A stretch of DNA of 64,000 nucleotides from a virus: the IMG/VR virus record IMGVR_UViG_3300031519_004559; one strand, written 5' to 3'. The notes below the pieces were generated by a model. That model was not told where the DNA came from. It saw nothing but the letters and a program-made list of their open reading frames with translations, and ran no database searches. Of this stretch, positions 38,124 through 64,000 are shown piece after piece. Numbering within the stretch: position 1 is the first letter of the stretch; the number at the start of each line of letters is the position of its first letter. Position numbers and translations under genes: made by a program.

Positions 38124-38152
38124 TTGACATTCTCCTTTAACTAGTGTATAAT
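38124..38152 (+). promoter_or_regulatory. Consensus sigma70 promoter opening the biosynthetic island
   Basis: TTGACA (38124-38129) - 17 bp - TATAAT (38147-38152). Confidence 0.9.
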
Positions 38153-38168
38153 AACACTTAAAGGAGAA
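38130..38168 (+). promoter_or_regulatory. RBS-occluding hairpin
   Basis: TTCTCCTTTAA (38130-38140) is the perfect reverse complement of TTAAAGGAGAA (38158-38168), which contains the SD of ORF 38173; inner GTGT/ACAC pair. Confidence 0.75.
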
Positions 38169-38172
38169 CCTT

Positions 38173-38514
38173 ATGGACAGTCAGTTGTCAAGTGCATTAG
38201 AGTTTGCTAATTATACGCAAACTTTATACAATCAAAAAAAACTAGCCGAACAAACATTTTTAGATGCGTGTGTAATATATCGGAATGCCGGTAAGTTTAC
38301 AATTACAATACAACTAATTGTATTATGCCAAGGATATCGAAATCAGTCGAGCGTTATATTGTTAGACGACAATAATATTCCTATTAAATTAGACGATATA
38401 GGAGTTTTTGCACAAGAAATTCAAAAGAGCTACACAGCAGCAATTAGCACGTACTATGATGAGCATCAGCGTATTATATCTAACAAAGATGTTAAAGGCG
38501 TAATAGATGAATAA
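38173..38514 (+). CDS. Hypothetical protein, possibly DUF4376-like tail-fibre-associated
   Basis: Strong SD; ILLDDNNIPIKL followed by a C-terminal helix resembles DUF4376-type proteins (weak). Confidence 0.5.
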   Translation: MDSQLSSALEFANYTQTLYNQKKLAEQTFLDACVIYRNAGKFTITIQLIVLCQGYRNQSSVILLDDNNIPIKLDDIGVFAQEIQKSYTAAISTYYDEHQRIISNKDVKGVIDE

Positions 38515-39295
38515 AGGCATTTTACTGTTTGCTTTTAACAATGAAAAAATTGATTATGTAAAGCAAGCAAAATTTGTTGCTACCCGTGCAAAACAATACC
38601 TTAATCTTCCAACAACATTAGTAACTGATAGTCCTGTTGAAGACGAAGTATTTGATAACGTACGGATTGCAGTAGATAATCATCCAACAAATAATAAAAC
38701 ATATCGAGATAGAACCACTTCGACTGTGCTTAATTTTAAAAATAGAGCAAGAATGTATGCGTACGATCTTTCACCGTATGATAATACTATTCTTTTAGAT
38801 ACAGATATTGTTATTTGTAATGACCAATATAATAAAGTGTTTCAACAAACTGACGATTTGTTAATGTATAGCAATGCATACGATATTACAGGAAATAGAA
38901 ATAAGAACGAATTTACTTATGTAAGTGACATAGGTTGCAAATTTTACTGGGCAACGTGTGTGTATTTTGAAAAAACAAAAAGAACAAACATATTTTTTGA
39001 TTTGCTTAAACATATAAGCCAAAATTATTCATACTATAAAGTATTATATGAATTGCCTACAAAGGTATATCGCAACGATTATGCTTTTAGTATTGCTGTA
39101 CACATTATGAATAATTTTTCTACAAAGGCAATAGGAGAGTTTCCTGGAACCTTATATTATTCAACAGACAAAGACAGTATTATAAATTTTAATAATAATG
39201 ATATTTTGTTTTTATCTGAAAACAACAAGCCAATAAAAACAAAAGGCATGAATGTTCATTGTATGAATAAATTTAATTTGGAGAGCATTCTGTGA
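38507..39295 (+). CDS. GT-A fold glycosyltransferase (GT8-like)
   Basis: YDLSPYDNTILLDTD (DxD), RND..FSIA, C-terminal HCMNK. Confidence 0.75.
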   Translation: MNKGILLFAFNNEKIDYVKQAKFVATRAKQYLNLPTTLVTDSPVEDEVFDNVRIAVDNHPTNNKTYRDRTTSTVLNFKNRARMYAYDLSPYDNTILLDTDIVICNDQYNKVFQQTDDLLMYSNAYDITGNRNKNEFTYVSDIGCKFYWATCVYFEKTKRTNIFFDLLKHISQNYSYYKVLYELPTKVYRNDYAFSIAVHIMNNFSTKAIGEFPGTLYYSTDKDSIINFNNNDILFLSENNKPIKTKGMNVHCMNKFNLESIL

Positions 39296-40044
39296 AAGGA
39301 TACCTTTTATACGCCCAAGGCGATACTCATATAAATTATGCAATTCAGTGTGCATATAGCTTGCGTGAGATAGGTGATACAAAACCTATAAGTCTTGTTA
39401 CAGATAAGCCGTGTAATGATACTGTATTTGATAAAATTATTATCGTAAAAGAAAACACAGATAAGTTCCATGTTGTAAACAGATCTAATTTATGGAAGCA
39501 TAGTCCGTATGACGAAACTACTGTAATTGAAAGTGACTGTCTAGTAACGCAAAGTTTGGATACATGGTGGCAAGCAAATGCTGATAGAGATTTATCGTTT
39601 ATTAGTCAAGCATACACTTATAGACAGGAACCGTTAGATATTAGATTTGACAGAAGGACTTGGATACAAAACGATCTTCCTAGTTTGTATGTTGCATTTC
39701 ATTATTTTAAAAAGACATCGTTTGTTAAAGAATTTTTTGAGTTAGTTACTACAATTAACTCGCATGAAGAAATTACAAAAACGTTTCTTCCTAAAAGAAG
39801 TCCTAAAGTTCCGAGTATGGATGTAGCAATATGTTTAGCAACAAAATTTTTAGATTGTTATTATAAAGTTGCATACACAGCTAGTGATCCTATGTTTATA
39901 CATATGAAACCAAACGCCCAAAAGTTTGTAACGCCATCTACTAATTGGTCCGACAAAGTAGGATTTTATAAAAACGGTAGCGAAGTCTTTATTGGTAATT
40001 TTAAACAAACCGGAATACTTCATTATATTGAGGAGGTTGTGTAA
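39292..40044 (+). CDS. GT-A fold glycosyltransferase-like paralog
   Basis: SPYDETTVIESDC aligns with the neighbour's DxD region; FIHMK, ILHY; GTG start overlapping the previous stop. Confidence 0.7.
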   Translation: MKGYLLYAQGDTHINYAIQCAYSLREIGDTKPISLVTDKPCNDTVFDKIIIVKENTDKFHVVNRSNLWKHSPYDETTVIESDCLVTQSLDTWWQANADRDLSFISQAYTYRQEPLDIRFDRRTWIQNDLPSLYVAFHYFKKTSFVKEFFELVTTINSHEEITKTFLPKRSPKVPSMDVAICLATKFLDCYYKVAYTASDPMFIHMKPNAQKFVTPSTNWSDKVGFYKNGSEVFIGNFKQTGILHYIEEVV

Positions 40045-40526
40045 TGTATGTGTATTTTGAGAAAGAAACTAGAAATATACTGTCAATAACAAATGCCCTA
40101 AATGAGAATTTAGAAAACTTTGTAGTAAAGGACAAAGAAGAAGTTAAAGATTTTATTTCAGGCGCAAAGAACTTTGCACACTATGTTATAGATAAAGATT
40201 TTAACATAACAGAAATTAACACTAACACTACATCTTTTAACATAAATGAAGTATTGCATCATATTGTATCACAAGAAGATCCTGACCTAACAGTTATTCA
40301 TGATAGCAAATGGGCGTTCTCTATGCAAAAACCTGTTAGCGGAAATTTATTTTTTGCAGTTACAGAAAAACATAATCCGAACAAATTAATTAGAACAATA
40401 GCAATTCCAGCATCAAGTTTAGATTGCGAAATAGAGTTTAAATATGCAAGTGAACACAACATTAATAATATAAGCATTTGGATACTACATAAAACGTTTC
40501 CGGTATGTTCGTTGGAGGTAAAATGA
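40044..40526 (+). CDS. Hypothetical protein
   Basis: 160-aa ORF coupled to both neighbours; GAGGAGG SD. Confidence 0.7.
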   Translation: MYVYFEKETRNILSITNALNENLENFVVKDKEEVKDFISGAKNFAHYVIDKDFNITEINTNTTSFNINEVLHHIVSQEDPDLTVIHDSKWAFSMQKPVSGNLFFAVTEKHNPNKLIRTIAIPASSLDCEIEFKYASEHNINNISIWILHKTFPVCSLEVK

Positions 40527-43111
40527 GCCAAGAATTTAAAGTATACGATTATGATATAATTTATTTAAGTTACGACGAACCAAACGCAGAAGAAAACTAT
40601 TATCATCTAAAGCAAAACATCCCTTGGGCAAAACGTGTGCATGGTGTAGAAGGCAGCGATGCTGCTCACAAAGCATGTGCTAATATTGCAGAAACTGAAA
40701 GATTTATAACTATTGACGGCGACAATAAAGTTGATCCTAAGTTTGTAAATGAAGTTTTGCAGTTTGCAGATGACGTAGATTTAAGTAAGTGCGTGGTTAG
40801 TTGGAGTGGTTATAATATGATCAACGGACTAACCTACGGAAATGGCGGAATTAAATGCTGGCCGACTGATCTTGTAAAAACAATGCGCACACACGAAAAT
40901 GCTGATCCTAACAATCCACATGCACAAGTTGACTTTTGTTGGGACTTAGAATACTTACAAGTTGACAAAACTTACAGCTATGTTTACAATAATGCAACTC
41001 CGCATCAGGCTTGGAGGGCAGGTTTCCGCGAAGGTGTTAAGATGAGTTTGCTTGAAGGCATACCTGCTAGTAAAGATAAGTTTTGCGAGCAGGTGCCTAA
41101 GAAAAACTTTGATAGGTTAAAAATTTGGTGTACAGCAGGTGCTGATGTTAAAAACGGTCTATGGGCAATTTATGGAGCTCGCGAAGGCCTTTATAAAACA
41201 ATGTGTACAGACTGGGATCACGTTAATGTAAGAGACTTTGAGCATTTAAACGACCTATGGAATGATAAAGTACAAGACGAAAGCGACCTATTAGAAGCAA
41301 TTGAAGATTACGGTGAGCGACTATCAGTAGAACTAGATATGCCAATTCCTATAGACCCACTTAGCAAAGAACAAAGCAAGTTTTTTAAAGGTGTTTACTT
41401 GCCGCCGCAACGTACTCCGCAAACATTTCTTACAAACAAAGATACAGCAGAATATGACATTGTGATGATAAGTTACAAAGAACCTAATGCAGAAGAAAAC
41501 TTTGATAAACTTAAAAGACGGTTTCCGCGGGCCAAACGTGTACATGGAGTTAAAGGAATTCATCAAGCACATATTGAAGCAGCAAAATTATGCACTACTG
41601 ATCTAATTTGGATTGTAGATGCCGATGCCGATGTGCTTGATAGTTTTAACTTTGATTACAAGTCGCCCGATAAAGAAAAAAATTATGTAAAAGTATGGCG
41701 TAGTATAAATCCTATTAACAATTTAGAATATGGGTATGGCGGCGTTAAGCTATTCCCTCGTGAAGCAACATTAAATATGGATACTACTAGGGCTGATATG
41801 ACTACAAGTATTAGTAGACATTTTAAACCTATAAAGGTAGTAAGTAATATTACAGCATTTAACACAGATGCGTATAACGCATGGAAGGGTGCATTTAGAG
41901 AATGTGCAAAATTAAGTAGTAAGGTAATTGACAGACAAAAGGAGGATGAAACAAATGAAAGACTTAAAATTTGGACAACAGTGGGAAAAGACAAACCGTT
42001 CGGCGAATACTGTATTAACGGTGCTCGTGCTGGCATGGAGTTTGGTTTATCTGATGGCGCTGATCTTAAATTAATAAACGACTTTAATTGGTTAGAACAA
42101 CAGTTTAATAATCAAACTGTAGACGAAGATACTCTTACGGCAAGTCCTGAAGTATCGAATAATGATATTAAAGACTTATTAGATAGATTTGAACTCTTAT
42201 ATGGCGGTGACATAGAAAATGTTAGACGTTTTTATAATGATAAAGATTTGTCTAGCATATTTAAATTAACAGAAAATGAAGAATTAAGAAAAGCAGTAGT
42301 TGAAAAAAATCTACACAGTATTTTTAGATTAGTAGGCGGAGAAGAAGATCTGCGCAAGGCCGTATTAGATAATAACTTATACAGCCTTGCAAGGATTATG
42401 CCAGAAGTATCAGATGAATTTAAAATTGTAAATAATAATGATTTTTATGCCCTGTGGAAAGTGTTAGAAAAGTATACAAATAGTTCTTATATAAAACCGT
42501 TAAAGGCACTATACAATGATACAACCTTTGACACTGATAGTTTTAGTAGAGGACAACTAGAAAGCAAAAAGTGGTTAGTTGACACTGTTAAAGATCTTAA
42601 TTTAATATTAGGTAATATATTCTTGTGTGCAGGATGGTATGCAACTGTAATACCTATGTTACAAGATAATGAAATATCATTTAATAATGTTCGAAGTTTT
42701 GATTTAGATCCTAATGTTTGGAAAACAGCAGAGATTTTTAATAAAGCACTTACGTCTGATGGTTGGAAATTTAAAGCACAAACTCTCGACATTCAACTTT
42801 TAAAATATGACGGATTTGAATTTGAAACTATTAAAAGTAATGGTGACATAGAAGTTATAAAAGATAGTGCAAATACAATTATTAATACAAGTTGTGAACA
42901 CATAGAAAATTTTACAGACTGGTATGCAAAAATACCAAATGGTAAATTAGTTATACTACAAAGCAACAACTTTTTTGAAGTTGACGAACATGTAAACTGT
43001 GTGAATGATATTGACGAATTTAAAGAGATGGCACCTATGACTGAGTTACATTATATGGGCTCTAAAGATATGACTAAGTACACAAGATTTATGTTGATTG
43101 GAATAAAATGA
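40523..43111 (+). CDS. Tandem glycosyltransferase (two GT-A domains) fused to a class I SAM-dependent methyltransferase
   Basis: Two homologous domains (YDI..SY.EPNAEEN...AKRVHGV.G...AH...IDGD / VDAD); C-terminal CAGWY, SFDLDP, INTSCEH; start moved to the ATG at 40523 (GGAGG SD, ATGA overlap). Confidence 0.8.
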   Translation: MSQEFKVYDYDIIYLSYDEPNAEENYYHLKQNIPWAKRVHGVEGSDAAHKACANIAETERFITIDGDNKVDPKFVNEVLQFADDVDLSKCVVSWSGYNMINGLTYGNGGIKCWPTDLVKTMRTHENADPNNPHAQVDFCWDLEYLQVDKTYSYVYNNATPHQAWRAGFREGVKMSLLEGIPASKDKFCEQVPKKNFDRLKIWCTAGADVKNGLWAIYGAREGLYKTMCTDWDHVNVRDFEHLNDLWNDKVQDESDLLEAIEDYGERLSVELDMPIPIDPLSKEQSKFFKGVYLPPQRTPQTFLTNKDTAEYDIVMISYKEPNAEENFDKLKRRFPRAKRVHGVKGIHQAHIEAAKLCTTDLIWIVDADADVLDSFNFDYKSPDKEKNYVKVWRSINPINNLEYGYGGVKLFPREATLNMDTTRADMTTSISRHFKPIKVVSNITAFNTDAYNAWKGAFRECAKLSSKVIDRQKEDETNERLKIWTTVGKDKPFGEYCINGARAGMEFGLSDGADLKLINDFNWLEQQFNNQTVDEDTLTASPEVSNNDIKDLLDRFELLYGGDIENVRRFYNDKDLSSIFKLTENEELRKAVVEKNLHSIFRLVGGEEDLRKAVLDNNLYSLARIMPEVSDEFKIVNNNDFYALWKVLEKYTNSSYIKPLKALYNDTTFDTDSFSRGQLESKKWLVDTVKDLNLILGNIFLCAGWYATVIPMLQDNEISFNNVRSFDLDPNVWKTAEIFNKALTSDGWKFKAQTLDIQLLKYDGFEFETIKSNGDIEVIKDSANTIINTSCEHIENFTDWYAKIPNGKLVILQSNNFFEVDEHVNCVNDIDEFKEMAPMTELHYMGSKDMTKYTRFMLIGIK

Positions 43112-44208
43112 AAATAGGGTTTATTGGTCTAGGTAAGTTAGGATTACCGTGTGCTGAAGTAATTGCTAAAAATGGCCATGTAGTATTAGGATACGATATA
43201 ACACCGGTTAAGAGCAACTACGTCATAGTTGAAGATTCTATCAAAGAAACTGTTACACCAGCAGACATAGTTTTTGTTGCTGTTCCTACTCCGCACGATC
43301 CTGCATATGACGGCAAGGCACCTACTTCACATTTACAGCCTAAAGACTTTGATTATAGTATTGTAAAAGATGTACTTGTGGAAGCAAACAAACATATGAC
43401 AAATAATCAAATGATTGTATTAATTAGTACAGTATTACCAGGTACAGTACGTAGAGAATTTGCACCACTAGTAACTAATACTAGATTTGTTTACAATCCA
43501 TATTTAATTGCTATGGGTACAGTTGCATGGGATATGGTCAATCCTGAAATGATTATGATTGGCACAGACGATGGTAGCGAAACAGGTGATGCAAAACAAC
43601 TTGTAGATTTTTATAAATCAATAATGGAAAACAATCCTCGCTACGTAATTGGCACCTGGGACGAATGCGAGTGTATTAAAGTTTTCTATAATACATTTAT
43701 AAGCACTAAAATTGCCCTTGTAAACATGATACAAGACGTAGCAGTGCAACAGGGTAACATTAACGTAGACGTTGTTACAGACGCTTTGTCGCAAGCTACA
43801 CAGCGTATTATAAGTCCAGCGTATATGACAGCAGGGATGGGAGATGGCGGCGCATGTCATCCTAGAGATAATATTGCTCTGCGTTTTCTAGCAGAGAAGC
43901 TAGATTTAGGATACGACATGTTTGACGCAATAATGATAGCAAGAGAACAACAAGCACGGAACATGGCTATTGAAATTTTAAAACACGGCAATCGGACACA
44001 GTTTAGTAGCGACAGTTATAAACCGGGTGTTGAATATACTGACGGTAGTTACAGTCTATTAGTGCAACATTATGTAAAAGAACTTGGCGGACAGATTGTT
44101 GATAGCAACCCGTTGGTGTATGTTTTAGTTCATCCAACTTGCAGGCCAATAAATAATGTATATAACTTCGATCCATGGAACAACTACGGAGTAAAGTATG
44201 AAACTTAG
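43108..44208 (+). CDS. ugd: UDP-glucose/GDP-mannose family nucleotide-sugar dehydrogenase
   Basis: IGLGKLG, VPTP, STVLPGT, KVFYNT, GMGDGGACHPRD (catalytic Cys), YKPG. Confidence 0.9.
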   Translation: MKIGFIGLGKLGLPCAEVIAKNGHVVLGYDITPVKSNYVIVEDSIKETVTPADIVFVAVPTPHDPAYDGKAPTSHLQPKDFDYSIVKDVLVEANKHMTNNQMIVLISTVLPGTVRREFAPLVTNTRFVYNPYLIAMGTVAWDMVNPEMIMIGTDDGSETGDAKQLVDFYKSIMENNPRYVIGTWDECECIKVFYNTFISTKIALVNMIQDVAVQQGNINVDVVTDALSQATQRIISPAYMTAGMGDGGACHPRDNIALRFLAEKLDLGYDMFDAIMIAREQQARNMAIEILKHGNRTQFSSDSYKPGVEYTDGSYSLLVQHYVKELGGQIVDSNPLVYVLVHPTCRPINNVYNFDPWNNYGVKYET

Positions 44209-44413
44209 TTTGAGAGAAATGCAAAAAGAAAGTGCTAGGGCATTAAGCTCAATGCAAGCAACAAACAACAACATCTACCAATTTAATAAACAAGCACATC
44301 ACAACAGTCAAAATTGGTATGCAGCAGTAATAGATTGGTATGTTAATGAGCACGGAGACTTGCCTAGTAAAGTTGGCCCAGGCAAAGATATTAAATTGGT
44401 GCTAGATGATTAA
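44198..44413 (+). CDS. Hypothetical protein
   Basis: 71 aa, GGAG SD, coupled to neighbours. Confidence 0.65.
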   Translation: MKLSLREMQKESARALSSMQATNNNIYQFNKQAHHNSQNWYAAVIDWYVNEHGDLPSKVGPGKDIKLVLDD

Positions 44414-45447
44414 TGAAATATGCATTTATAGATGACATTCAATCGTGGGCAAAAACAGATATTAGTATGCTGCCAGAGATTGAAACACCCGATGATGTAC
44501 AAATATATCCTATTGAATATTCTCCGGGGATAGACGAACCGATTGATCAATGGATACAATTAGTAATAGACGGAACAAATAAACAGTTTATTAAACACAA
44601 TAATGTTAGAGTAGTACTTTTTGATTTATTTGAAGCAAGTAAATTTGTTTACAACGCTGCGAAATTATTAAACACCCATTTACAAAAGAAAATTTATGTA
44701 ATAACTTGTGATCAATTATTACCTAACCGATCTACTAAAGATTTACATTTTATTTTTCATAACTTTTGGAGCGGTCGTATGCTTCCGTCTAAACGTGTAT
44801 TATTTTCTAGCAAAAAATTATATATAAATTGTACTAGAGTAGTACGCCCTCATAGAGCACAATTAATAGAAGAATTAATTAACAACAATCTTTTTGACTT
44901 AGGATATAACACAATAAGTGATAAAGGTGGCGAGTTAACAAATTATCTTAATAAGACTACAACGTCAAGGATTCCTGATCAAAAATTTGATGTATTAGAT
45001 GTTAATAATTTAATTAATATAAATCCTAATAACTTTGTACCTATAAAACAATGTGAGAAATCTTTTGTGTATATTGCAACAGAAACATTGGTTGACAATA
45101 ATCGACTGTTCTTTTCAGAAAAAGTTTACAAACCAATTGCAATTGGAATGCCGTTCATGGTATTAGGTAATCCTGGAACATTAAAATCTTTAAAACAAAT
45201 GGGGTACAAGACTTTTGATAAATGGTTTAACGAAGACTACGACAACGATATTAATTTAGCAGATCGAATAAAAATCATTACAGATAATTTAAACTATTAT
45301 AGAAATTTTACAAAGCGTGAATTAGACGTTATAAGATTTGAAATGAAAGCAGTGACTACGCATAATCACAAAGTTTATAAGAAACGATGCGCAATCACTA
45401 ATTTAGAAAAACTAAAGACTGCTATACAAGGAATTATAAATGAATAA
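44413..45447 (+). CDS. Glycosyltransferase-like protein (GT10/GT-B-like C-terminus)
   Basis: IATET...FFSEKVYKPI...PFMVLG...GYKTF...EDYD resembles the fucosyltransferase-type E...(T/S)EK motif. Confidence 0.5.
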   Translation: MKYAFIDDIQSWAKTDISMLPEIETPDDVQIYPIEYSPGIDEPIDQWIQLVIDGTNKQFIKHNNVRVVLFDLFEASKFVYNAAKLLNTHLQKKIYVITCDQLLPNRSTKDLHFIFHNFWSGRMLPSKRVLFSSKKLYINCTRVVRPHRAQLIEELINNNLFDLGYNTISDKGGELTNYLNKTTTSRIPDQKFDVLDVNNLININPNNFVPIKQCEKSFVYIATETLVDNNRLFFSEKVYKPIAIGMPFMVLGNPGTLKSLKQMGYKTFDKWFNEDYDNDINLADRIKIITDNLNYYRNFTKRELDVIRFEMKAVTTHNHKVYKKRCAITNLEKLKTAIQGIINE

Positions 45448-45874
45448 AGGAACTATTATAGTAGTTGATGCCTGGAAGCATTGTGAAAGACCTGATATAA
45501 GACGCTTTCCGTACATTGAACAGGAAGCAAAATTATTTGGTAGCTTTTTAAATCTACGTTTAAAAAATTTAAGATCAAGCTATACGATTGTGCATTGTGC
45601 AGACGGTAGAGAGACAATGGACGAAATTAATACTTGGGAAGATATAGTAATCAATAAGATACACGAGACTCCGGATACCGGCGGCCCATACTACTTTTGT
45701 GGGTTTCATCTCGGACGCTGCATAGATAGAAAATATAACGAACTAGGCAGAACTTCACATATTATTGTAAATTTAAGTTTACTTTATCCCGGAGATGATT
45801 ATTATAAGATTGACAAAACTAAAAATTTGTGTTACAATACATATAGAGGGATGGAAAAATGCATTATGATTTAA
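45440..45874 (+). CDS. Small isochorismatase/cysteine-hydrolase-like protein
   Basis: IIVVDAW N-terminus and FCGFHLGRCI. Confidence 0.45.
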   Translation: MNKGTIIVVDAWKHCERPDIRRFPYIEQEAKLFGSFLNLRLKNLRSSYTIVHCADGRETMDEINTWEDIVINKIHETPDTGGPYYFCGFHLGRCIDRKYNELGRTSHIIVNLSLLYPGDDYYKIDKTKNLCYNTYRGMEKCIMI

Positions 45875-46614
45875 TTAATTTAGGCGGTGGAAACGGTTCA
45901 GGCGGAAATGCCTCCGGCACAACAATTAACTTTCCAAGTTCGTCTGACCAAAAGATGTGGCAAAAACTAAAACGTCGACAGGGTAAGCATTGGAAATATG
46001 CTAATCTTAGAAACGATCCTATAAAATTTACACATAATACTATGGGATACAGAACGCATGAATTTGACTTTGACAACGATGACGAATACATTATCCACAT
46101 TGGGTGTAGTAATACATACGGATTATACTTACATGAACACGAACGTGCTTCAAATCTTATAGAAAAGAATTTAGATATAAAAACCTACAATTTAGGACTA
46201 TGCGGCGGCAGTCCAAATTATATTATGATGAATATAGCTAACCTATTGTATAATGCATCAAAACGACCAAAGGCAGTAGTTATACAATGGCCAAGATCTA
46301 TGAGACTAAATCTTCCGTACACACATCCTAGAAGTGCTGTGATGCGTATAAGGCCTACTGAAAATCAAAAGGGATTTGAATCCTTTATACGAGACGAAAT
46401 TAACCCTATAGAAACACATTCTAAATGGAGCAGCCGTCACACTTTAAATTTATTAAATAGTTTTGATGTTACTACTATTCAATATTGCGTAGATCACGAA
46501 GCTAATTTGTACGGCATAACTGAAATTAACCGATTAGATACAGCATATGATAATAAACATATAGGCACATTAACTAATGAAAGTATTTTTAATTATGTTA
46601 AGGAACAGTTATAG
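45859..46614 (+). CDS. SGNH/GDSL hydrolase-like protein
   Basis: IGCSNTYG, NLGLCGGS, VVIQWP, DNKH. Confidence 0.65.
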   Translation: MHYDLINLGGGNGSGGNASGTTINFPSSSDQKMWQKLKRRQGKHWKYANLRNDPIKFTHNTMGYRTHEFDFDNDDEYIIHIGCSNTYGLYLHEHERASNLIEKNLDIKTYNLGLCGGSPNYIMMNIANLLYNASKRPKAVVIQWPRSMRLNLPYTHPRSAVMRIRPTENQKGFESFIRDEINPIETHSKWSSRHTLNLLNSFDVTTIQYCVDHEANLYGITEINRLDTAYDNKHIGTLTNESIFNYVKEQL

Positions 46615-47678: not shown

Positions 47679-47681
47679 GTA
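47676..47681 (+). promoter_or_regulatory. Possible late promoter TAAGTA
   Basis: 8 nt upstream of ATG 47690, no SD. Confidence 0.35.
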
Positions 47682-47689
47682 GATATGCA

Positions 47690-51273: not shown

Positions 51274-51304
51274 ATCAGTAATTAAATTAATAAAACGGAT
51301 ACAC

Positions 51305-51312
51305 GATAAGTA
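51305..51312 (+). promoter_or_regulatory. Putative late promoter GATAAGTA
   Basis: In the largest intergenic gap of the island, 8 nt upstream of ATG 51321, no SD. Confidence 0.5.
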
Positions 51313-51320
51313 CGTATATA

Positions 51321-54030: not shown

Positions 54031-54032
54031 CA

Positions 54033-56208: not shown

Positions 56209-56970
56209 ATGAAAGAACGTATTCTAATTTTAGGTGACAGTTTTGCAGTAGCATACGGTCGACTAGAACAATATGCCTGGGTATCTCAATTAGCAGAAAA
56301 GTTTGATGTAGACAACTATGCAGTAAGTGGATCAGGAGTTTACTGGAGTTATCTTAAATTTCTAGAACATTACCAAGATAATTATAGTCATATAATTTGG
56401 GTAGTATCAGATCCGATGCGAGGATATATTCCTGAGATTGCACATAAAGTTAATCAACCTCATGAGGAACACTTTAGCGCAAGTCATGGTCAAAGAGGCT
56501 GGAAACGTTTTAACCAATACCCTATTGAAGAACTAAGATATACTTATAAGCATGTTGACTCTTATTATGCATTGATAGACAAACAAAAAGAAAATATATC
56601 GTCTTATTTAATGGTAGCCGACGCAAAACAAAAACGTCCAGAGATGTTAGTTCTTTCCTGCTTTCCTGCTTTACTTGAACACGAGTTAGATAATGCAAGT
56701 AATGATGTTAGTATTTTTGCAAATACTGATTCGCTTTTTGATTTTCAATACAACGATGAATCCCATTGGATAACCTCTAACCAAATTAAGAGAAAACGAC
56801 TAGATAAAGCATTAGGGTTTAACGACGATAGAGTATGTCATTTTACAATAGAAAACAATAAGATGCTGTATACAAAAATGTTAACGTGGATCGATAATAA
56901 AAACTTTGAATTATCATTAGATGACTGGCAACAGCCAAAAGACGCATGTAATTTTTATTTAAACTATTAA
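56209..56970 (+). CDS. SGNH/GDSL hydrolase-like protein
   Basis: ILGDSFA, NYAVSGSG, DDRVCHF. Confidence 0.65.
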   Translation: MKERILILGDSFAVAYGRLEQYAWVSQLAEKFDVDNYAVSGSGVYWSYLKFLEHYQDNYSHIIWVVSDPMRGYIPEIAHKVNQPHEEHFSASHGQRGWKRFNQYPIEELRYTYKHVDSYYALIDKQKENISSYLMVADAKQKRPEMLVLSCFPALLEHELDNASNDVSIFANTDSLFDFQYNDESHWITSNQIKRKRLDKALGFNDDRVCHFTIENNKMLYTKMLTWIDNKNFELSLDDWQQPKDACNFYLNY

Positions 56971-56988
56971 CAGCAATTGGGGAGTAAT

Positions 56989-58086
56989 ATGACAAAAAAG
57001 AAATACGCATGTCCTTTGCCGTTTAACCATATGGCAATTCGGCCTGATGGTCGTGTATTGCCTTGTTGTATATATAGATGGGCCGATGTACCAAGTGATT
57101 TAAATATCTTTCATAATGATCCATTAAATCATCCGTATATGAAAGACCTAAGAGAACAAATGCGCAATGATACTCCGGTAAGTGGATGTTCGTATTGCTA
57201 TAAAGACGAAGCACTAAACGGTCAAAGTATGCGTACTGAGATGTGGGACGACAGTGAAAAGTATGGGTTATCGAGTTTAGAAAATAATACTCCGCCTGAA
57301 TTGACTTATCTAGATTTAAGTATTAGTAACACTTGTAATAATAAATGTAGAATGTGTATGCCTGAACTTAGTACTTCTTGGTATGCTGATGCAAAGCAAC
57401 TAGGTTTAGAAATTCCTAAAGGTATTATTACTAACCCGTTAATTGAAAACGGTGATTTTAGTAAACTAAAGTATTTAAAATTACTAGGTGGTGAGCCGCT
57501 GTTAGAACAAGATAAACTTATCAAAATATTAAAACAATGCGATCTTCCTAATTTAAGAATAAATCTAATTACAAATACTACAGTTATACCTACTGAAGAA
57601 TTGCATAATCTGTTCACACAGTGTAAAAAAGTATCAGTTAGTTTAAGTATGGATGCAACTGGCGCATTAAATGAATTTTTAAGAAAAGGGTCTGAATGGG
57701 CTAAAACTGTTGAAACTGTAGATTGGTTTATATCTAATAACTATGATCTAAATGTACATAGTGTTGCTAGTATTTACAATGTAAACGTATTACATCAATT
57801 AAACAAGTTCTGTCAAAGTAAGAAGTTAATACAAAAATGTGTGTTAGTTGATGGCCCTGAGTATATGATGCCTAGGAATTTACCTGTTCAAGTTAAAGAA
57901 AAATTAAAAAAACGCTTGGAAAAAGATAAGAATGATGCTATAATAAACACAGTAATCAAAGAACTATCTACACCAGGAAATTTTGATGTGTTTGTAGAAA
58001 ACGATAATAAAATGAACGAATTAAGAAATGAACATTGGAAACATGCAAACCCTGAATTGTACAAACTACTAAGGGGTTATCTATGA
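56989..58086 (+). CDS. Radical SAM protein with N-terminal Twitch-like domain (class B3)
   Basis: CPLPF...DGRVLPCC...CSYC, then SNTCNNKCRMC, LGGEP; start moved to the ATG at 56989 (GGAG SD). Confidence 0.9.
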   Translation: MTKKKYACPLPFNHMAIRPDGRVLPCCIYRWADVPSDLNIFHNDPLNHPYMKDLREQMRNDTPVSGCSYCYKDEALNGQSMRTEMWDDSEKYGLSSLENNTPPELTYLDLSISNTCNNKCRMCMPELSTSWYADAKQLGLEIPKGIITNPLIENGDFSKLKYLKLLGGEPLLEQDKLIKILKQCDLPNLRINLITNTTVIPTEELHNLFTQCKKVSVSLSMDATGALNEFLRKGSEWAKTVETVDWFISNNYDLNVHSVASIYNVNVLHQLNKFCQSKKLIQKCVLVDGPEYMMPRNLPVQVKEKLKKRLEKDKNDAIINTVIKELSTPGNFDVFVENDNKMNELRNEHWKHANPELYKLLRGYL

Positions 58087-59195
58087 CTGAAGATTTAAAA
58101 TGGAGTAATTATGATTTTTCAAAGATACCCTTTGACGACATCGTTAGTGTTGGTCAGCGTACTTTGTTGTACCGTGATTTATTTACTGTCAGCTGGCTAC
58201 TTGGCCGCTTCTGTAACTACAAATGTAGCTACTGTTGGCCTTACGCCCGCAGTGATCGTAAAGACCACCGACCTACCGAGCTCTGTCTCAAAACAATAGA
58301 TGAAATAAAAAGGCAAGCTAGGGAAAATAACTTTAACAGTTTTCACTTTAGTCTTAGCGGGGGAGAACCTACATTCCACCCAGGATATTTAGATATACTA
58401 AAACACCTAGCAGACGATGTAGAGAACACTAATTATACCAGTGTACACATGACAACAAACATGTCACGTAATATGAAGTGGCACAAAGAGTATGTAGAAG
58501 CAGTTAAGCCCTTTCATCGTGCTAGTATTACAGCAAGTTTGCACACAGAACATGTAAACAGCATTGAGAAGATGCAAGACTTTGCAGACAAATTAATCTT
58601 CTGTCAAGAGCATGACGTACAAGTTACAATTAATATGGTAATGGTACCAGACTGGTTTGAACGTGATTGGGAAAATGCATTGTTCTTTCACAAGCAAGGC
58701 ATAAACGTTACGCTAAAGCCCCAAAGCGACCCTACAGCAAGCCGAGTAGTAGACGGGTATACAAAGGACAACCTAAAGCGTTTGTACAACGGTATGCCGC
58801 AACGTGCGTACACAGAGAGCAAGCGTAAGTGGACAGGTAGGCCAAAGCCTACTTTTGGAATGCCTACAGATGTTGCAGGTAAGAATGATGCTAGTGTTCC
58901 ATGGCATATGCAAATTGAACTCGAAGACTCGAAGGGCGATAAGTACTATATGGACCAAGCAGAACGTTTTAATGCCTTTAATTTCAACAATTTTGAAGGA
59001 TGGCGGTGTAACGCCGGTTACAGTGGACTTATAATACGCGAGCCAGACGGTTCGGTAAAACGCAGTTATTCTTGTCACGATGCACCCCTTGGTAATATAG
59101 AAACAGGCTTTACTATATTTAAGACACCTAAGACGTGCATAACTAAGAGTTGTGTAAGCAGTGCTGACTCAAAGATACCAAAAAGGAAAGTGTAG
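58083..59195 (+). CDS. Radical SAM protein (class C2)
   Basis: VSWLLGRFCNYKCSYC, LSGGEPT, FEGWRC...SC...LGNI...C...C. Confidence 0.9.
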   Translation: MTEDLKWSNYDFSKIPFDDIVSVGQRTLLYRDLFTVSWLLGRFCNYKCSYCWPYARSDRKDHRPTELCLKTIDEIKRQARENNFNSFHFSLSGGEPTFHPGYLDILKHLADDVENTNYTSVHMTTNMSRNMKWHKEYVEAVKPFHRASITASLHTEHVNSIEKMQDFADKLIFCQEHDVQVTINMVMVPDWFERDWENALFFHKQGINVTLKPQSDPTASRVVDGYTKDNLKRLYNGMPQRAYTESKRKWTGRPKPTFGMPTDVAGKNDASVPWHMQIELEDSKGDKYYMDQAERFNAFNFNNFEGWRCNAGYSGLIIREPDGSVKRSYSCHDAPLGNIETGFTIFKTPKTCITKSCVSSADSKIPKRKV

Positions 59196-59201
59196 GGAAA
59201 T

Positions 59202-60023
59202 ATGAAATTATTATGTGACAACTGGTGCGCCGAATACGATATTAAATTAAAAGGCATGCCCGAAGATGAACTTATTGATATATTTCAAGATATTTACAAA
59301 CACCTTGTATTAAACTTCCGTGATCAAGATCTAGATGAAGCAGAGTTGTTGCGCATTAGCGAAGTAATAGGCAGTGTGCAAAAACAAGATCCTAAAGATG
59401 CTCAACGTGCTTACGGAGGCAGCGGTGATGTATGGGCAGGCGAAGGTATACTTAGAGTAGGCGGAGATGAGTTAACAGGCAAGCCTAGTTTGTTTAGTCA
59501 CAAACACGACTTAGACTGGCATGCTAATCAACCTAGTAATCCTATTCGTAAAAAATTAATTTGGTTATACGCACTTACAGGTACAGCAGGCAGTAGAACA
59601 AGTTGGTTAAACAATGCATGGGCATATCAAGACTTGCCAAAAGATGTTAAATTGCAACTTGAAGATCTAAATGTTATCTGCGGATACAAAGCAGGACGTT
59701 ACAGTGACACGCCGCTGTTTAAGGATCATTTAGATATAGACAATCCTGTAAAACTTATACAAAGTTTTGGTAACCATAAGGGTATCTTTTTTCCGTTCTA
59801 TCAAATATTTGAAGTAGTAGGATATTCAGAAAAAGAAAGCCAAGACCTTATTGAATATTTACAAAATCATATTCTTAACGAAAAATATATGTATCATCAT
59901 GATTGGAAAGACGGTGATTTAAACGTAGCAGAACAAGTAGTGACTATACATAAACGCTGGCACTTCGAGCATATGGGAACACGTATATTATGGAGGGTAG
60001 CAAGTGGCCACGAGCATCTGTAA
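59202..60023 (+). CDS. TauD/TfdA family Fe(II)/2-oxoglutarate dioxygenase
   Basis: LNFRDQDL, LDWHAN, HDWKDGD, IHKR, RILWR. Confidence 0.85.
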   Translation: MKLLCDNWCAEYDIKLKGMPEDELIDIFQDIYKHLVLNFRDQDLDEAELLRISEVIGSVQKQDPKDAQRAYGGSGDVWAGEGILRVGGDELTGKPSLFSHKHDLDWHANQPSNPIRKKLIWLYALTGTAGSRTSWLNNAWAYQDLPKDVKLQLEDLNVICGYKAGRYSDTPLFKDHLDIDNPVKLIQSFGNHKGIFFPFYQIFEVVGYSEKESQDLIEYLQNHILNEKYMYHHDWKDGDLNVAEQVVTIHKRWHFEHMGTRILWRVASGHEHL

Positions 60024-60771
60024 TGCTATATTAGAGCAGAGTACCGCAGTGCGTACTTATGCACTTCCTGAAGTAAACACCGCTGTACGGGCTTTAAAAT
60101 GCGACTTAGACGCCATTAATCCGTACACTACTAACATAAAACAATGGTTAAAACCTGTAATTGATCTCGAAGACTTCTATGTGTATCCTACAAATGGAAT
60201 CACTGAAGGTTTAAATTGGTGGATGGCTAACGAGACTCGTAGCATATATATGGATGACGGTGACTATCAATGGGTAGTGCAACGTGGCAGTCAGTATGAT
60301 AACTGCATAAAGTATATGAGTTCTCCTGCATGTAAAGACGGCAACTTTAAAGAAGTTCCAACACATACGCCCATAGCATTAGATTTAGCATATGTAGGAA
60401 GTACTATTGCACAGCCAATTGAAATAAGTGACAACGTAGAATATGTATTCTATAGTCTAAGTAAAGCATTCGGGTTACGTAATGTTCGCACAGGCTGGAT
60501 CTTTACACGACGCCCTGATCAAAGGTTGGAAGCTATAACGCACAGTGCCAAATATTATAATTACTTTGCTCACAATGTTGCTGAAACAGTTATAAATAAA
60601 TTTGATATAGAATACATTTGGCGCAATAGAGAATTTAGACAACATCATATTTGTAGAGAATATGAATTTACACCCAGTGATAGTGTGTGGCTAGCAACTA
60701 CTAACAATCCTGCTTATGATAAATTTAAAAGAGACGGGGTAAATAGGGTATGCCTAGTACCATCCTTTTAG
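60004..60771 (+). CDS. PLP-dependent aminotransferase-like enzyme (fold type I, compact)
   Basis: TNGITEGL, DLAY, SLSKAFGL...RTG (PLP Lys). Confidence 0.8.
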   Translation: MATSICNAILEQSTAVRTYALPEVNTAVRALKCDLDAINPYTTNIKQWLKPVIDLEDFYVYPTNGITEGLNWWMANETRSIYMDDGDYQWVVQRGSQYDNCIKYMSSPACKDGNFKEVPTHTPIALDLAYVGSTIAQPIEISDNVEYVFYSLSKAFGLRNVRTGWIFTRRPDQRLEAITHSAKYYNYFAHNVAETVINKFDIEYIWRNREFRQHHICREYEFTPSDSVWLATTNNPAYDKFKRDGVNRVCLVPSF

Positions 60772-62279
60772 GAACAATCAGTAGTACGTATAATGACTGG
60801 GTGCCTTATCCTGTAGGGTGTCTTATTTCTCATTGTATGAAAAATCCTAACATTGCAAGAGACTACACATTTTTTGAACCGTTGTATAAAAACAAATGGG
60901 ACACTCCTGAACTACACGAAACGTTAAAAAAGACAGATATACTAGGACTAACTTGTTACGTATGGAATCAGCATGCCAACGATACAATAGCACAAAAGTT
61001 TAAAGAGTACAATCCAAGCGGTATAGTTATATACGGTGGCCCAAATGTTCCTGAACAAAACTTAGAAGAATTTAAACGTCCTTACGTAGATCATTATATG
61101 ACAGGCCCCGGCGAACTACAGTGGGAAAAGTTTTTAGATCCTACTAGTGATAGTGAATATGCAATACCAACACCTTATACTGATGGAATTTTTGATGACT
61201 TGTTAACTCGCGAAAATGATATAGCAGTTGCATTTGAAACTAATAGAGGGTGTCCGTATCATTGTGCATTTTGTGATTGGGGCGGAGTAAGTCGTAGTAA
61301 GATTACACAACTAAAAGATACCGCAGTTAAAGAAACAATCGAACATGTATTAAGTTTTGATAATGTAAAGCGTTTAGAAATACTAGATGCCAACTACGGA
61401 ATACTGCCAAGAGATGTGGAGTTTGTACAACATATTGTTGACAACAAAACCCGTGACGACATGATGTTAACATTCGCAGGCTTTGCTAAAAACGGATCTC
61501 CCCACCTAGCAAAAATTATGAATCTTACAATGGATAACTTTAATGATAAATTACGCAATGTAAAGATCAGTTTGCAAACTCTAACACCTGCGGTGCTTGA
61601 TACAATCCAGCGTAAAAATATTTCAACAGACAAGCTACTGAGTATTATAGACGAACTTAGAGATGTAAAAGTTAATAGTGAACTTATAATCGGGTTGCCG
61701 GGAGAAACAGCAGACAGTTGGGCTGATACATTATTTAAACACCCTGAACTAGGCATTGACTTTGCTAGAAGTTATCCTTTGTATGTGTTGCCAAATACAC
61801 CTATGGCAACTAATGAATATAAAGAAGAACATAGAATTCAAACTAAAAAAATTATATTACCAAACAACGAACAGTTTGAAATGATATACGAATGTAGTAG
61901 TTATGACTTAAATGAAATTACACAAATATATTTAAATTGGTGGTACTTTAATACCTTCTACAATTTTGGCATTGACAAAACTATCACTAAAGATACAATG
62001 AAAGATTTCTTTGAGAACTTGAGCGATATGCCGTTTATAAGTTGTTGTGTTGAAGAAGTAAAACTTTCGCTTGCTAGGATATTTACTCCAGCACCACAAT
62101 TGAATTTAGAAGGATATGATTTACGATACTTGCATAAAAATTTAGGCAGGGGGAGAGAATTAATTTATTTTAAAGATAACATAGACACAGTGCGCAGTGA
62201 ACTAGGTATGCCTAAGTTAAATATTAAAAATGATTACATGGAATTATCTAGTCCGTTTGCACACATAAAGGAAAAATAA
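60750..62279 (+). CDS. Cobalamin-binding radical SAM protein (class B methyltransferase-like)
   Basis: LGLTCYVWN, GGPNV, GPGE B12-binding domain; ETNRGCPYHCAFCDWG; DANYG; ELIIGLPGET. Confidence 0.9.
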   Translation: MPSTILLGTISSTYNDWVPYPVGCLISHCMKNPNIARDYTFFEPLYKNKWDTPELHETLKKTDILGLTCYVWNQHANDTIAQKFKEYNPSGIVIYGGPNVPEQNLEEFKRPYVDHYMTGPGELQWEKFLDPTSDSEYAIPTPYTDGIFDDLLTRENDIAVAFETNRGCPYHCAFCDWGGVSRSKITQLKDTAVKETIEHVLSFDNVKRLEILDANYGILPRDVEFVQHIVDNKTRDDMMLTFAGFAKNGSPHLAKIMNLTMDNFNDKLRNVKISLQTLTPAVLDTIQRKNISTDKLLSIIDELRDVKVNSELIIGLPGETADSWADTLFKHPELGIDFARSYPLYVLPNTPMATNEYKEEHRIQTKKIILPNNEQFEMIYECSSYDLNEITQIYLNWWYFNTFYNFGIDKTITKDTMKDFFENLSDMPFISCCVEEVKLSLARIFTPAPQLNLEGYDLRYLHKNLGRGRELIYFKDNIDTVRSELGMPKLNIKNDYMELSSPFAHIKEK

Positions 62280-62945
62280 ATGAAGGACATTATCTTTACA
62301 CCATTGGCAATACCGCCAATACCTAACAAGCAAAAAATACTTGATAGATTTAATGCTCCTGAATTCTATATTTGGTGGGACGAAGAAACTTTATTGGGAG
62401 AAAAAGAAAACAACAATCCTTTAGGAAAGCCACAACAGTGGACAGATGTTGCTAAAGAAAATTATTCCGAACTAATAGAATGGGTCGAAACATACATGCC
62501 AATGGACGAATATTATTATATTCGTATAGCAAGAGCTAAACACGAGATACCTCCACACATTGATGGCAATGCTGTTACACCAACACACGAACACCACCTT
62601 GCTATTATGCCTGAAGTACTTGAGTACAACATGGCACACGAACCTATTGGATATCGATTCGTTGTAAAAGGTAGCAAAGATAAAATGTATATGTGTAAAG
62701 AATATGATTATACAAGAGACATGTCTTGGCAAGAAAAGCATCGCTGTATTGTGCCAGAAGAAACAGATGCGTTTTTAATACGCAATCAAGACCAAGCACA
62801 TGGTGTAGAAGCAGATGCAGAAGATCGACTAATAGGATTTATATTAGGAAAGGTTAATGCCAAAAAGCACTGGGACCTAATAGAAAAAAGCGTAAGTATA
62901 TATAGTAAAAATGTTATAAGGAAACAAGATGTATTCAATGCATGA
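62280..62945 (+). CDS. Putative Fe(II)/2OG or cupin-type oxygenase
   Basis: IPPHID (HxD)...AHGV...R. Confidence 0.55.
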   Translation: MKDIIFTPLAIPPIPNKQKILDRFNAPEFYIWWDEETLLGEKENNNPLGKPQQWTDVAKENYSELIEWVETYMPMDEYYYIRIARAKHEIPPHIDGNAVTPTHEHHLAIMPEVLEYNMAHEPIGYRFVVKGSKDKMYMCKEYDYTRDMSWQEKHRCIVPEETDAFLIRNQDQAHGVEADAEDRLIGFILGKVNAKKHWDLIEKSVSIYSKNVIRKQDVFNA

Positions 62946-63546
62946 TGGCGCAAATATTAGTGTACACCAAGAAATAGCTGAACGTCTACAGCCGAAAAGC
63001 TGTATTGAAATTGGTACATATTACGGTGGAATTACATATAAGTTAAGTAAACTATTACCTAATAGTCATTTCTTTGCTGTACAAAGTTACCACGATCATA
63101 AACTTAATCATATGCCAAATACTGATAGAGGCGAATATAGTATTGGTAAAGCTGAATTAAGTAAGAGTAAAGGACTAGACGAAGACCTTAAAGACCAAGA
63201 TTGGAAGCGGAGTGTTAAAAGACATTTTCCAGAAGAGTATCACAATTACTTTGATTTTAATTTACTTGTAAAAACCTTTCAAGATTGTGATAATGTTACA
63301 CTAATACTTGACACTAGTCCTTTTAAGTATGATTGGAATAATGGGTTTGATCTAGTGATTTTTGATGTAAGTCCTTTGTATGCTGAAAATAAAATACAGT
63401 TTGATTATTGGGCAAAGTATGGCAATCCTAATAGTTACATACTAATGGGGGCGTATAATCATCAACAAGAATTTTATGAGTATGTGACATCTAAAAAATA
63501 TACTGCAGAAAAAATAAGGGATGATTATGTTCTCGTGCGCTTATGA
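62938..63546 (+). CDS. Class I SAM-dependent methyltransferase
   Basis: IEIGTYYGG motif I, FDLVIFD; start 62938 (ATGCATGA overlap) or 62929. Confidence 0.8.
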   Translation: MHDGANISVHQEIAERLQPKSCIEIGTYYGGITYKLSKLLPNSHFFAVQSYHDHKLNHMPNTDRGEYSIGKAELSKSKGLDEDLKDQDWKRSVKRHFPEEYHNYFDFNLLVKTFQDCDNVTLILDTSPFKYDWNNGFDLVIFDVSPLYAENKIQFDYWAKYGNPNSYILMGAYNHQQEFYEYVTSKKYTAEKIRDDYVLVRL

Positions 63547-64000
63547 GCTAGATATAGATGTCACACAACTACGTGAAGAATTACAACATTTAAACAATCC
63601 TATATACAAGTATGCAGGGTATGATGATATGTGCTTTTACGTATCGGACGAGACTGTGCGTCAACAAGGCTGTGATGCTGTTGTTAATTTTAAAAAAATA
63701 TTTAATAACGGATTTGTAGACAGCATACGTTTCCTAAATATGTATCCTGGACAAAAATATTTGCCACATGTTGATAGTAACGAACAAAATTTTCACAAAG
63801 ATATTCCTATGGATATACAACATCCTGGTAATGTAAACATACTTCTTAGCAAGCCTGTTGGAGATACTACTGTGTGGTATATTGATCCTGAACTTAGAAA
63901 GTTATGGCCTTGGGCATTTTCAAACAACGGAGATCTATTTCCTGATAGTGTCAACAAATACATTTCCGCGGATACAATGGGACAAGATATGACTACAATT
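63527..64000 (+). CDS. Partial ORF, putative Fe(II)/2OG oxygenase (runs off the window; not in ORF track)
   Basis: Hand-translated open frame from 63521/63527: MFSCAYELDID...FLNMYPGQKYLPHVD...NVNILL; AAGGG SD. Confidence 0.6.
   Translation, partial: MFSCAYELDIDVTQLREELQHLNNPIYKYAGYDDMCFYVSDETVRQQGCDAVVNFKKIFNNGFVDSIRFLNMYPGQKYLPHVDSNEQNFHKDIPMDIQHPGNVNILLSKPVGDTTVWYIDPELRKLWPWAFSNNGDLFPDSVNKYISADTMGQDMTTI

Follow-up and report, generated by a model that had tools for sequence, protein, structure and literature searches.

What does a phage make with an operon that combines glycosyltransferases with ten radical S-adenosylmethionine (SAM) enzymes directly downstream of its tail-fibre genes, and to what is the product attached? 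The question is raised by a 27-kb island in virus record IMGVR_UViG_3300031519_004559, an uncultured marine jumbo phage of which a 64,000-nucleotide stretch (the window) was analysed; genes are named here by the first position of their open reading frame (ORF). We find that islands of this type share a conserved phage core, made up of a pair of GT-A glycosyltransferase domains, a repeat spacer, a methyltransferase-like domain, a 64-amino acid (aa) protein and the radical SAM enzymes 46614, 51321 and 58083, while the cassettes lying between these genes turn over freely. Counterparts of the core are present in chromosomes of Bdellovibrionota. We hold with moderate confidence that the island is a mobile biosynthetic cluster that would act in the cytoplasm of infected cells, building a modified saccharide and diversifying it.

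A conserved core with interchangeable cassettes

Homologues of 51321 were found on 152 IMG/VR contigs, the 80 best being 82-97% identical and located on contigs of up to 382 kb, as well as in 2282 homologous protein clusters, many of them from Tara or other marine data. In contrast, the flanking proteins in the same phage loci are just 33-50% identical. Core counts were made on the 43 phage loci with full flanks: 41 contain an orthologue of 46614, 39 have a GT-A homologue no more than 10 kb from the anchor, and in 32 a 58083 orthologue (~84% identical in phage loci) lies within the same distance. The initial annotation had staked its reading in part on the genes travelling together in relatives, and the core genes do co-occur. 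The block 37172-38173-GT8-GT8-x-GT-A is furthermore syntenic in all phage loci that extend that far (7/7). As synteny in relatives starts at 37172, this position and not 38173 is the functional left edge of the island. The 38173 protein has no Pfam match; homologues occur in 11 phage loci, and one at 26% identity in a bacterial locus (L115).

The regions between the anchors are variable. In relatives, 51321 and 58083 lie anywhere from 19 bp to over 9 kb apart, the cassettes at 47624-51273 are patchily present, and related 21-kb loci contain 5-12 genes with a radical SAM motif (median 9). The phage pan-island comprises 445 protein clusters (at 40% identity) in 86 loci, with radical SAM proteins making up 50 of 150 cluster representatives. 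Other pan-island families are class-B radical SAM, QueC-like, carbamoyltransferase, AspH-like, AMP-binding, MobA-like nucleotidyltransferase and methyltransferase proteins, and a dehydrogenase of the uridine diphosphate (UDP)-glucose type recurs in about 8-9 related phage loci. Some related islands carry a flavin-dependent Trp-halogenase (E 1e-68), a carbamoyltransferase, an AMP-binding enzyme and membrane fatty-acid desaturases/hydroxylases, which are unusual in phages.

Three contigs assigned to bacterial metagenome-assembled genomes (MAGs) were also encountered. Those from Crocinitomicaceae (L082) and Arcticimaribacter (L083) carry a phage-type anchor that is 91-94% identical, L082 together with the remaining phage-type core; both are probably phage contigs binned into bacterial MAGs. 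The third, a 38-kb Dojkabacteria contig (L086), encodes a 57% identical 51321 homologue and an 1188-aa protein with a phage tail-sheath domain, with no other core genes nearby.

Counterparts in Bdellovibrionota

A scan of species-representative genomes located the core in a Bdellovibrionia MAG, where the flanking genes are cellular (MoxR, DUF58, SppA). Of 401 Bdellovibrionota genomes, 24 have a single-copy 58083 orthologue (57-69% identity), and NF033640, the family to which 51321 belongs, is present in 31 of 151 sampled. Across 16 bacterial loci the 58083/46614/51321 triad is co-located in 15-16, with GT-A homologues in 12 and an extra GT2 enzyme in six. The 46614 orthologue (15/16 loci) shares 41-49% identity with the phage protein, and the 51321 orthologues ~60%. 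One locus, located beside pheST, rplS, trmD and rimM, contains the entire 5' block (37172, 38173, both GT8 genes and GT-A homologues).

A larger bacterial cluster (G152) adds orthologues of 55036, 47624 and 48722, the dehydrogenase (49% identity), a class-B-like radical SAM enzyme, TauD and a PP-loop protein. In G152 and in a second cluster (G164), the GT2 enzyme is paired with an ArnT/PMT-like GT-C. Bacterial islands also encode a carbamoyltransferase, adenosine 5'-phosphosulfate kinase, a protein of the 3'-phosphoadenosine 5'-phosphosulfate reductase family and a UDPGP-type enzyme. In the Bdellovibrionia MAG located by the scan (G002), 19 proteins exceed the NF033640 cut-off, and 13 of these are encoded within ~30 kb. 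In the region G002:C1:745000-775000 (loci L093 and L094), twitch paralogues stand alongside a carbamoyltransferase, an AspH-like protein, a B12-type radical SAM enzyme and sulfate-activation genes. No functional study of NF033640, or of clusters combining radical SAM and glycosyltransferase genes in Bdellovibrio, was found in the literature.

In a maximum-likelihood tree of 58083 orthologues, the phage sequences form one clade (100/100) that is nested among the bacterial sequences under outgroup rooting. The topology provides a lead towards transfer from bacteria to phage, the outgroup branch being long.

Gene content of the island and its phage setting

The window derives from a T4-like or jumbo myovirus, encoding gp46/gp47-like nucleases, a gp55-like late sigma factor and baseplate proteins. 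Its closest cultured relatives are jumbo phages (Sinorhizobium phage Phosso, Agrobacterium phage Atu_ph07, Pseudomonas phage PA5oct and Rak2-like phages) at 36-47% protein identity; the baseplate wedge protein and the gp46-like nuclease both find their best cultured-phage matches in Phosso, Atu_ph07 and PA5oct, within that same range. The island DNA has no DNA-level match among 50,697 phage records. The nearest virus record among those searched (G001), a 26-kb fragment, matches the window without a difference as far as 33783 but does not contain the island. A phage collection that was searched holds no 58083 homologue, and its best 51321 matches are 23-26% identical.

The island lies inside the structural gene block, directly downstream of the tail fibres, the order being a giant ORF (15264-31016), three tail-fibre-like genes and then the island. 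The giant ORF (5250 aa, plus strand) is situated between a baseplate wedge gene and the tail-fibre genes and may encode a VrlC-type structural protein as in pelagimyophages. Two genes of the tail-fibre region, 31041 and 35651, are closely preceded by GATAAATA boxes, at 31015 and 35622. The initial annotation described a dense co-directional operon of at least 25 genes over 38173-64000. This operon is real: 27 plus-strand ORFs of at least 113 aa are all co-directional and mostly overlap or abut, with gaps confined to 44209-44412 and 51274-51320; as set out above, its functional extent reaches further left. The features from 37172 onwards are as follows.

37172-38116 (+): 314-aa protein with a three-helix N-terminus and a galectin-like beta-sandwich (AlphaFold2 model); first gene of the conserved 5' block
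38124-38152 (+): perfect sigma-70 consensus promoter, TTGACA-17-TATAAT (sequence match)
38173-38514 (+): 113-aa conserved protein, function not assigned (homologues; no Pfam match)
38507-39295 (+): GT8-like (glycogenin-like) glycosyltransferase (family profile against glycogenin-1)
39292-40044 (+): second GT8-like glycosyltransferase, paralogue of 38507 (same family profile)
40044-40526 (+): 160-aa protein, function not assigned, in a conserved slot (163-201-aa ORF in this slot of relatives)
40505-43111 (+): core fusion of GT-A (residues 11-308), GT-A' (317-540), helical repeats and a C-terminal methyltransferase-like domain (~650-868) (BLAST, AlphaFold2, Foldseek)
43108-44208 (+): nucleotide-sugar (UDP-glucose type) dehydrogenase, short form, 366 aa (PF03721, PF00984)
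44219-44410 (+): 64-aa core protein specific to phage islands (conserved in 63 phage loci)
44413-45447 (+): 344-aa protein, candidate glycosyltransferase from motif reading alone; no Pfam/NCBIfam match (sequence)
45440-46614 (+): two accessory proteins, one of 144 aa with function not assigned, one of 251 aa (45859-46614) weakly DUF6473-like (Pfam E 1e-4)
46614-47678 (+): core radical SAM/SPASM-type enzyme, anchor 1 (Pfam, orthologues)
47624-51273 (+): variable cassettes, with three paralogous radical SAM/SPASM enzymes (47624, 48722, 50224) and a 182-aa protein (49675-50223) (Pfam, NCBIfam)
51321-52736 (+): core radical SAM enzyme with N-terminal twitch domain, anchor 2 (NF033640, 419 bits)
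52714-58086 (+): cassette block, with twitch radical SAM enzyme 52714, QueC-like PP-loop ATPase 54033, semi-conserved radical SAM/SPASM enzyme 55036, GDS-motif protein 56209 and twitch radical SAM enzyme 56977
58083-59195 (+): core radical SAM enzyme, anchor 3 (Pfam, 59 bits)
59202-64000 (+): tailoring arm, with TauD-type oxygenase 59202, HisC/CobD-like pyridoxal 5'-phosphate (PLP) enzyme 60004, class-B-like radical SAM enzyme 60750 and small proteins 62280, 62929 and 63521 (63521 runs off the window)

The ten radical SAM proteins counted in the initial annotation (46614, 47624, 48722, 50224, 51321, 52714, 55036, 56977, 58083 and 60750) all match Pfam Radical_SAM with E 1e-15 to 8e-5, six reaching the gathering score, and all ten contain the CxxxCxxC motif. 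Three are members of NF033640, a family with an N-terminal twitch domain and a cut-off of 170 bits, and align over nearly the full model (51321 at 419 bits, 56977 at 242 and 52714 at 197); the other seven score 28-49 bits and fall outside it. The NF033640-type cysteine pattern consists of invariant C14, C95 and C98 with near-invariant C33, followed by C151, C155 and C158. No other curated NCBIfam cut-off was reached by any of the ten. This includes the MoaA, PqqE, NirJ and Ahb models, characterised cofactor families in which membership would, according to the initial annotation, have counted against its reading, as well as viperin and the peptide maturases. Enzyme 60750 can be described as class-B-like through partial similarity: it matches NF033712 (the KedN5 family) partially with 159 bits against a cut-off of 700, placing it outside that family, and TIGR04013 with 34 bits over residues 60-354, with no Pfam B12-binding domain reported at E 0.01 or better. 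An Atlas search with 58083 returned viral radical SAM clusters only.

Glycosyltransferase domains are supported for 38507, 39292 and, twice, for 40505. The family profile of 38507/39292 matches glycogenin-1 with E 5e-6 over positions 13-106, so that the N-terminal half alone aligns; in the DxD region D98 is near-invariant and D100 invariant. The 868-aa 40505 protein contains two GT-A domains that are ~33% identical to each other (BLAST domain map). An AlphaFold2 model of residues 1-560, with a mean predicted local distance difference test score (pLDDT) of 72, retrieves the K4CP chondroitin polymerase (2z86) in Foldseek with E 3e-6. Further fold matches of the GT-A pair are LH3, Mimivirus R699, SunS, ThuS, LARGE1 and PBCV-1 A64R. 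Collagen-like modification, prompted by the LH3/ColGalT matches, was considered and rejected, as no upstream structural protein contains G-X-Y runs. Downstream of the GT-A pair, a helical repeat of ~22-23 residues is present in two copies in the window and in 0-12 copies in homologues. The two methyltransferase domains of the initial annotation are reduced to leads: the C-terminal domain of 40505, with no PDB sequence match, is suggested to be methyltransferase-like by a language model, and 62929 gives a fold lead at Pfam E 0.004.

Several other enzyme assignments made at the outset are supported. The nucleotide-sugar dehydrogenase 43108 exceeds the cut-offs of PF03721 (71 bits, cut-off 27) and PF00984 (60 bits, cut-off 25.4) and contains the motif GGACHPRD with a candidate catalytic Cys. 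It scores 138 bits on TIGR03026, under the cut-off of 190, and Pfam gives no match to a C-terminal UDP-binding domain. The 54033 family has an invariant SGGxDS motif and a Cys cluster (C-x20-CxxCxxC), which support its prediction as a QueC-like PP-loop ATPase; its database scores are weak. The PLP enzyme 60004 has a HisC/CobD-like fold (E 2e-4) and an SxSK motif, and the claim of oxygenases holds for 59202 (TauD, 94 bits). Proteins 62280 and 63521 are putative further Fe/2OG oxygenases, and the SGNH, lyase-like and isochorismatase-like proteins of the initial annotation stand as candidates.

Two conserved proteins, 37172 and a 64-aa protein, add to the initial annotation. An AlphaFold2 model of 37172 (mean pLDDT 91) shows three helices and a galectin-like beta-sandwich. 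Structure comparison identified no clear structural relative, with weak beta-sandwich hits (Z up to 7.2) and three uncharacterised phage proteins at template modelling (TM) scores of 0.73-0.80. A 37172 homologue, sometimes duplicated, heads the 38173-40505 block wherever phage loci reach that far, making the protein a candidate acceptor or adhesin. The initial annotation saw no obvious precursor peptide, missing the conserved 64-aa ORF in the 204-bp gap at 44209-44412. This protein is 76-86% identical across 63 phage loci, and in 61 of these its ORF lies downstream of a 40505-type gene at a constant distance of 17 nt, abutting or overlapping the next gene. It has 34 relatives among 1.8 billion representative proteins, mostly of 46-98 aa. 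Two variants (P0371 and P0387) form the C-terminal end of one 307-aa protein and six repeated stretches in a 440-aa protein.

Product, acceptor and competing explanations

A saccharide product is favoured because radical SAM enzymes are paired with glycosyltransferases, nucleotide-sugar enzymes are present, bacterial versions include lipid-carrier/GT-C steps, and the loci are laid out as anchors with variable cassettes. Conserved anchors with variable content between them are the layout of O-antigen and capsule loci, and a GT2 plus GT-C pair is the standard route by which a modified sugar is transferred to a lipid carrier and onwards to a surface acceptor. The glycan-type pathway of the initial annotation is supported by three observations: in phages and bacteria alike the radical SAM enzymes are regularly accompanied by glycosyltransferases, the dehydrogenase recurs, and two bacterial clusters contain GT2 and GT-C. 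In the window no transmembrane segment was detected in the island proteins, save one marginal hydrophobic stretch in 40505, in agreement with the absence of a transporter noted at the outset, and no GT2 or GT-C homologue occurs in 80 phage loci. The phage versions hence lack a membrane step, and the acceptor must be accessible from the cytoplasm.

We propose that the fixed core (the GT-A pair with 46614, 51321 and 58083) would make a common scaffold from nucleotide sugars, UDP-glucuronic acid being one likely input here. In phages, the GT-A pair would operate fused or adjacent to the variable-length helical spacer and the methyltransferase-like domain. The cassettes would then decorate the scaffold, using radical SAM paralogues, the QueC-like ATPase, the PLP enzyme, TauD and the class-B-like radical SAM enzyme, with carbamoyltransferase and halogenase in relatives; interchangeable cassettes could lead to a different product in each phage lineage. 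The product could be attached to the 37172-family protein, to the tail fibres or to the inner-leaflet core of lipopolysaccharide (LPS). A virion or adhesin target is plausible from the position of the island and the conserved 37172 block, and the likeliest phage acceptor would be a fibre or adhesin protein at the 5' edge of the island (the 37172 family or the tail fibres).

Comparison with characterised systems lends this proposal partial support. Like K4CP, LARGE1 and heparosan synthase, 40505 combines two GT-A domains in a single chain, each with a DxD-type motif, and it adjoins a UDP-glucose dehydrogenase able in principle to supply glucuronic acid. However, the similarity to these dual GT-A polymerases is at the level of fold only (~10% identity, with a TM score of 0.18 as domain orientations differ), and they offer no parallel to the constant association of 40505 with three radical SAM enzymes. 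In the WbdA/WbdD system of E. coli O9a, the coiled-coil ruler of WbdD, with its capping methyltransferase, sets chain length. In 40505, too, a helical spacer whose length varies among homologues precedes a methyltransferase-like domain, the latter a fold lead, and by analogy this suggests that the spacer may be a chain-length ruler of the WbdD kind.

The radical SAM complement resembles BtrN, BlsE and GenK-type class B methyltransferases in its twitch/SPASM auxiliary-cluster domains, in the class-B-like 60750 and in profile matches, both weak (E 2e-5 and 2e-3), to the cytosylglucuronate decarboxylase BlsE, itself a radical SAM enzyme. Unlike these sugar and nucleoside enzymes, in which the twitch domain is C-terminal, the island family carries it at the N-terminus, and the ten paralogues of the island, like the 50 or more distinct clusters of the pan-island, far outnumber those of any characterised sugar pathway. 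Soluble viral GT-A enzymes beside structural genes are also a feature of virion glycosylation, as with PBCV-1 A64R, the Mimivirus fibril genes and the mycobacteriophage glycosyltransferases, whereas in the present system a glycosylated virion protein is a prediction. We know of no radical SAM enzymes in the chlorovirus, Mimivirus or mycobacteriophage systems.

A number of observations weigh against this interpretation. The sugar nature of the product, its acceptor and each individual reaction are what we infer from gene content. Peptides are the commoner substrates of SPASM/twitch radical SAM enzymes. PDB searches with single proteins returned nothing useful, and profile searches with the three core radical SAM families gave mixed matches (SkfB, anSME, viperin, MoaA, BlsE, NifB and GDGT-MAS) that do not tell one substrate class from another; the best match of the twitch family is SkfB (E 1.6e-9). 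The 25 most frequent Pfam families of the pan-island do not include the classical nucleoside diphosphate-sugar enzymes (4,6-dehydratases, DegT aminotransferases and epimerases), and the halogenase, AMP-binding enzyme and fatty-acid desaturase of relatives suit a small-molecule or lipid pathway as well. The substrate could also be the 64-aa protein itself. As GT8 enzymes typically serve in LPS core synthesis, the host envelope is an equally accessible target. Finally, the initial annotation had adduced internal late-type promoters in favour of a virion protein target. Chance alone would give 12.8 copies of the T4 late box TATAAATA in the whole window, where a single one is present, and the promoter at 38124-38152, in the 56-bp gap before 38173, is the sole 12/12 sigma-70 match within 36000-55999. 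The timing argument for a virion target therefore falls. The late promoter of this phage may be unlike that of T4.

The strongest competitor is remodelling of the host envelope, in which the island would alter LPS or lipooligosaccharide core, O-chain or capsule, for example against superinfection or the trapping of progeny, using soluble glycosyltransferases at the inner membrane face and the export machinery of the host. A role of this kind has been put forward for the pelagimyophage host recognition cluster, which contains glycosyltransferases, a UDP-glucose dehydrogenase and radical SAM cassettes and was interpreted as modifying the host O-chain (PMC7029224). The GT8 family, a sigma-70 promoter permitting early expression, the two bacterial versions whose GT2 and GT-C enzymes deliver sugars to the envelope, and the fatty-acid desaturase and AspH/LpxO-type hydroxylases of related islands all fit such a role. 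Nevertheless, we consider it rather unlikely: the window encodes no initiating transferase, flippase, polymerase, ligase or convincing membrane protein, the 80 phage loci provide no GT2/GT-C homologue to take over the delivery step, and the island sits within the structural block immediately after the tail fibres.

Maturation of a ribosomally synthesised and post-translationally modified peptide (RiPP), or of a glycocin-like product, is less probable still. Here the radical SAM enzymes would cross-link, epimerise or methylate the 64-aa or 37172-family protein, to which the GT-A domains would add sugars. The high conservation of the 64-aa ORF at a fixed position against the next gene is what such a substrate might show, SPASM/twitch domains are present, the nearest solved structures include SkfB and anSME, and the fold matches of the GT-A pair include two peptide S-glycosyltransferases, SunS and ThuS. 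The combination of a B12-type radical SAM enzyme with an iron/2-oxoglutarate-dependent oxygenase and a methyltransferase furthermore resembles proteusin tailoring. Yet the 64-aa protein was not found in any of the bacterial core versions (tblastn and hidden Markov model searches), and it lacks an invariant Cys and is conserved from end to end, which sets it apart from precursors with a leader and a core. Pfam scans, including those of the pan-island, report no PqqD, peptidase or transporter family, and no RiPP recognition element, leader peptidase or exporter was detected.

A diffusible small molecule (aminoglycoside-, nucleoside- or pseudo-oligosaccharide-like), made during infection and acting on competitors or host metabolism, is improbable. 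The repertoire does recall natural-product tailoring, with a class-B-like radical SAM enzyme, TauD and a PLP enzyme here and Trp-halogenase, carbamoyltransferase and AMP-binding enzyme in relatives, and the weak BlsE matches point the same way. The island however contains no exporter or self-resistance gene, the variable spacer on the GT-A pair points to a polymer or macromolecular acceptor, and the position among structural genes does not suit such a product. Hypermodification of phage DNA with a complex sugar or 7-deazapurine-type group, an alternative raised by the initial annotation since phages are known to glycosylate DNA and since a QueC-like PP-loop ATPase with radical SAM enzymes recalls 7-deazaguanine pathways, is now highly improbable because the same cluster resides in Bdellovibrionota chromosomes beside housekeeping genes (pheST, rplS, trmD), sometimes with envelope-directed GT2/GT-C enzymes, and the island shows no DpdA/TGT, nucleotide kinase or hydroxymethylase, with QueD, QueE and FolE models all below cut-off.

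Phage glycan pathways and the radical SAM cassettes of marine T4-like phages were already known; what is conserved among the latter, and its origin, had not been defined. A T4-like environmental genome with 12 radical SAM genes has been described without a proposed mechanism (PMC5332604). The pelagimyophage cluster is alike in being a large hypervariable island within the structural region, near a giant gene and tail fibres, with glycosyltransferases, UDP-glucose dehydrogenase and radical SAM cassettes; the phage studied here differs in its backbone, which is not that of a pelagimyophage and is nearest, among cultured phages, to the jumbo phages. The giant ORF is a candidate counterpart of the VrlC-type gene upstream of the pelagimyophage cluster, and the side that would border gp14 falls beyond the window. 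The two published accounts (PMC7029224, PMC5332604), unlike the present one, contain no conserved core and no bacterial counterpart, and on mechanism go no further than 'O-chain modification' or 'Fe-S metabolism'. What is new is a delimited and testable core that is widespread in ocean viromes and has a previously unreported bacterial counterpart.

Taking the preferred saccharide interpretation a step further, it can tentatively be proposed, at low confidence, that marine jumbo phages and predatory Bdellovibrionota share an unrecognised, radical-SAM-driven system for diversifying glycans or glycoproteins, in which a core scaffold would be placed on a recognition fibre or adhesin, cassettes would vary the surface in each lineage, and a repeat ruler would set chain length. 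Should the product instead be a modified protein, phages would carry a new RiPP-like class. If the product is a glycan, the islands would hold a very large uncharacterised pool of sugar-acting radical SAM chemistry, with at least 50 distinct enzyme clusters, and viruses, perhaps along with predatory bacteria, would have a new means of varying a recognition or surface structure.

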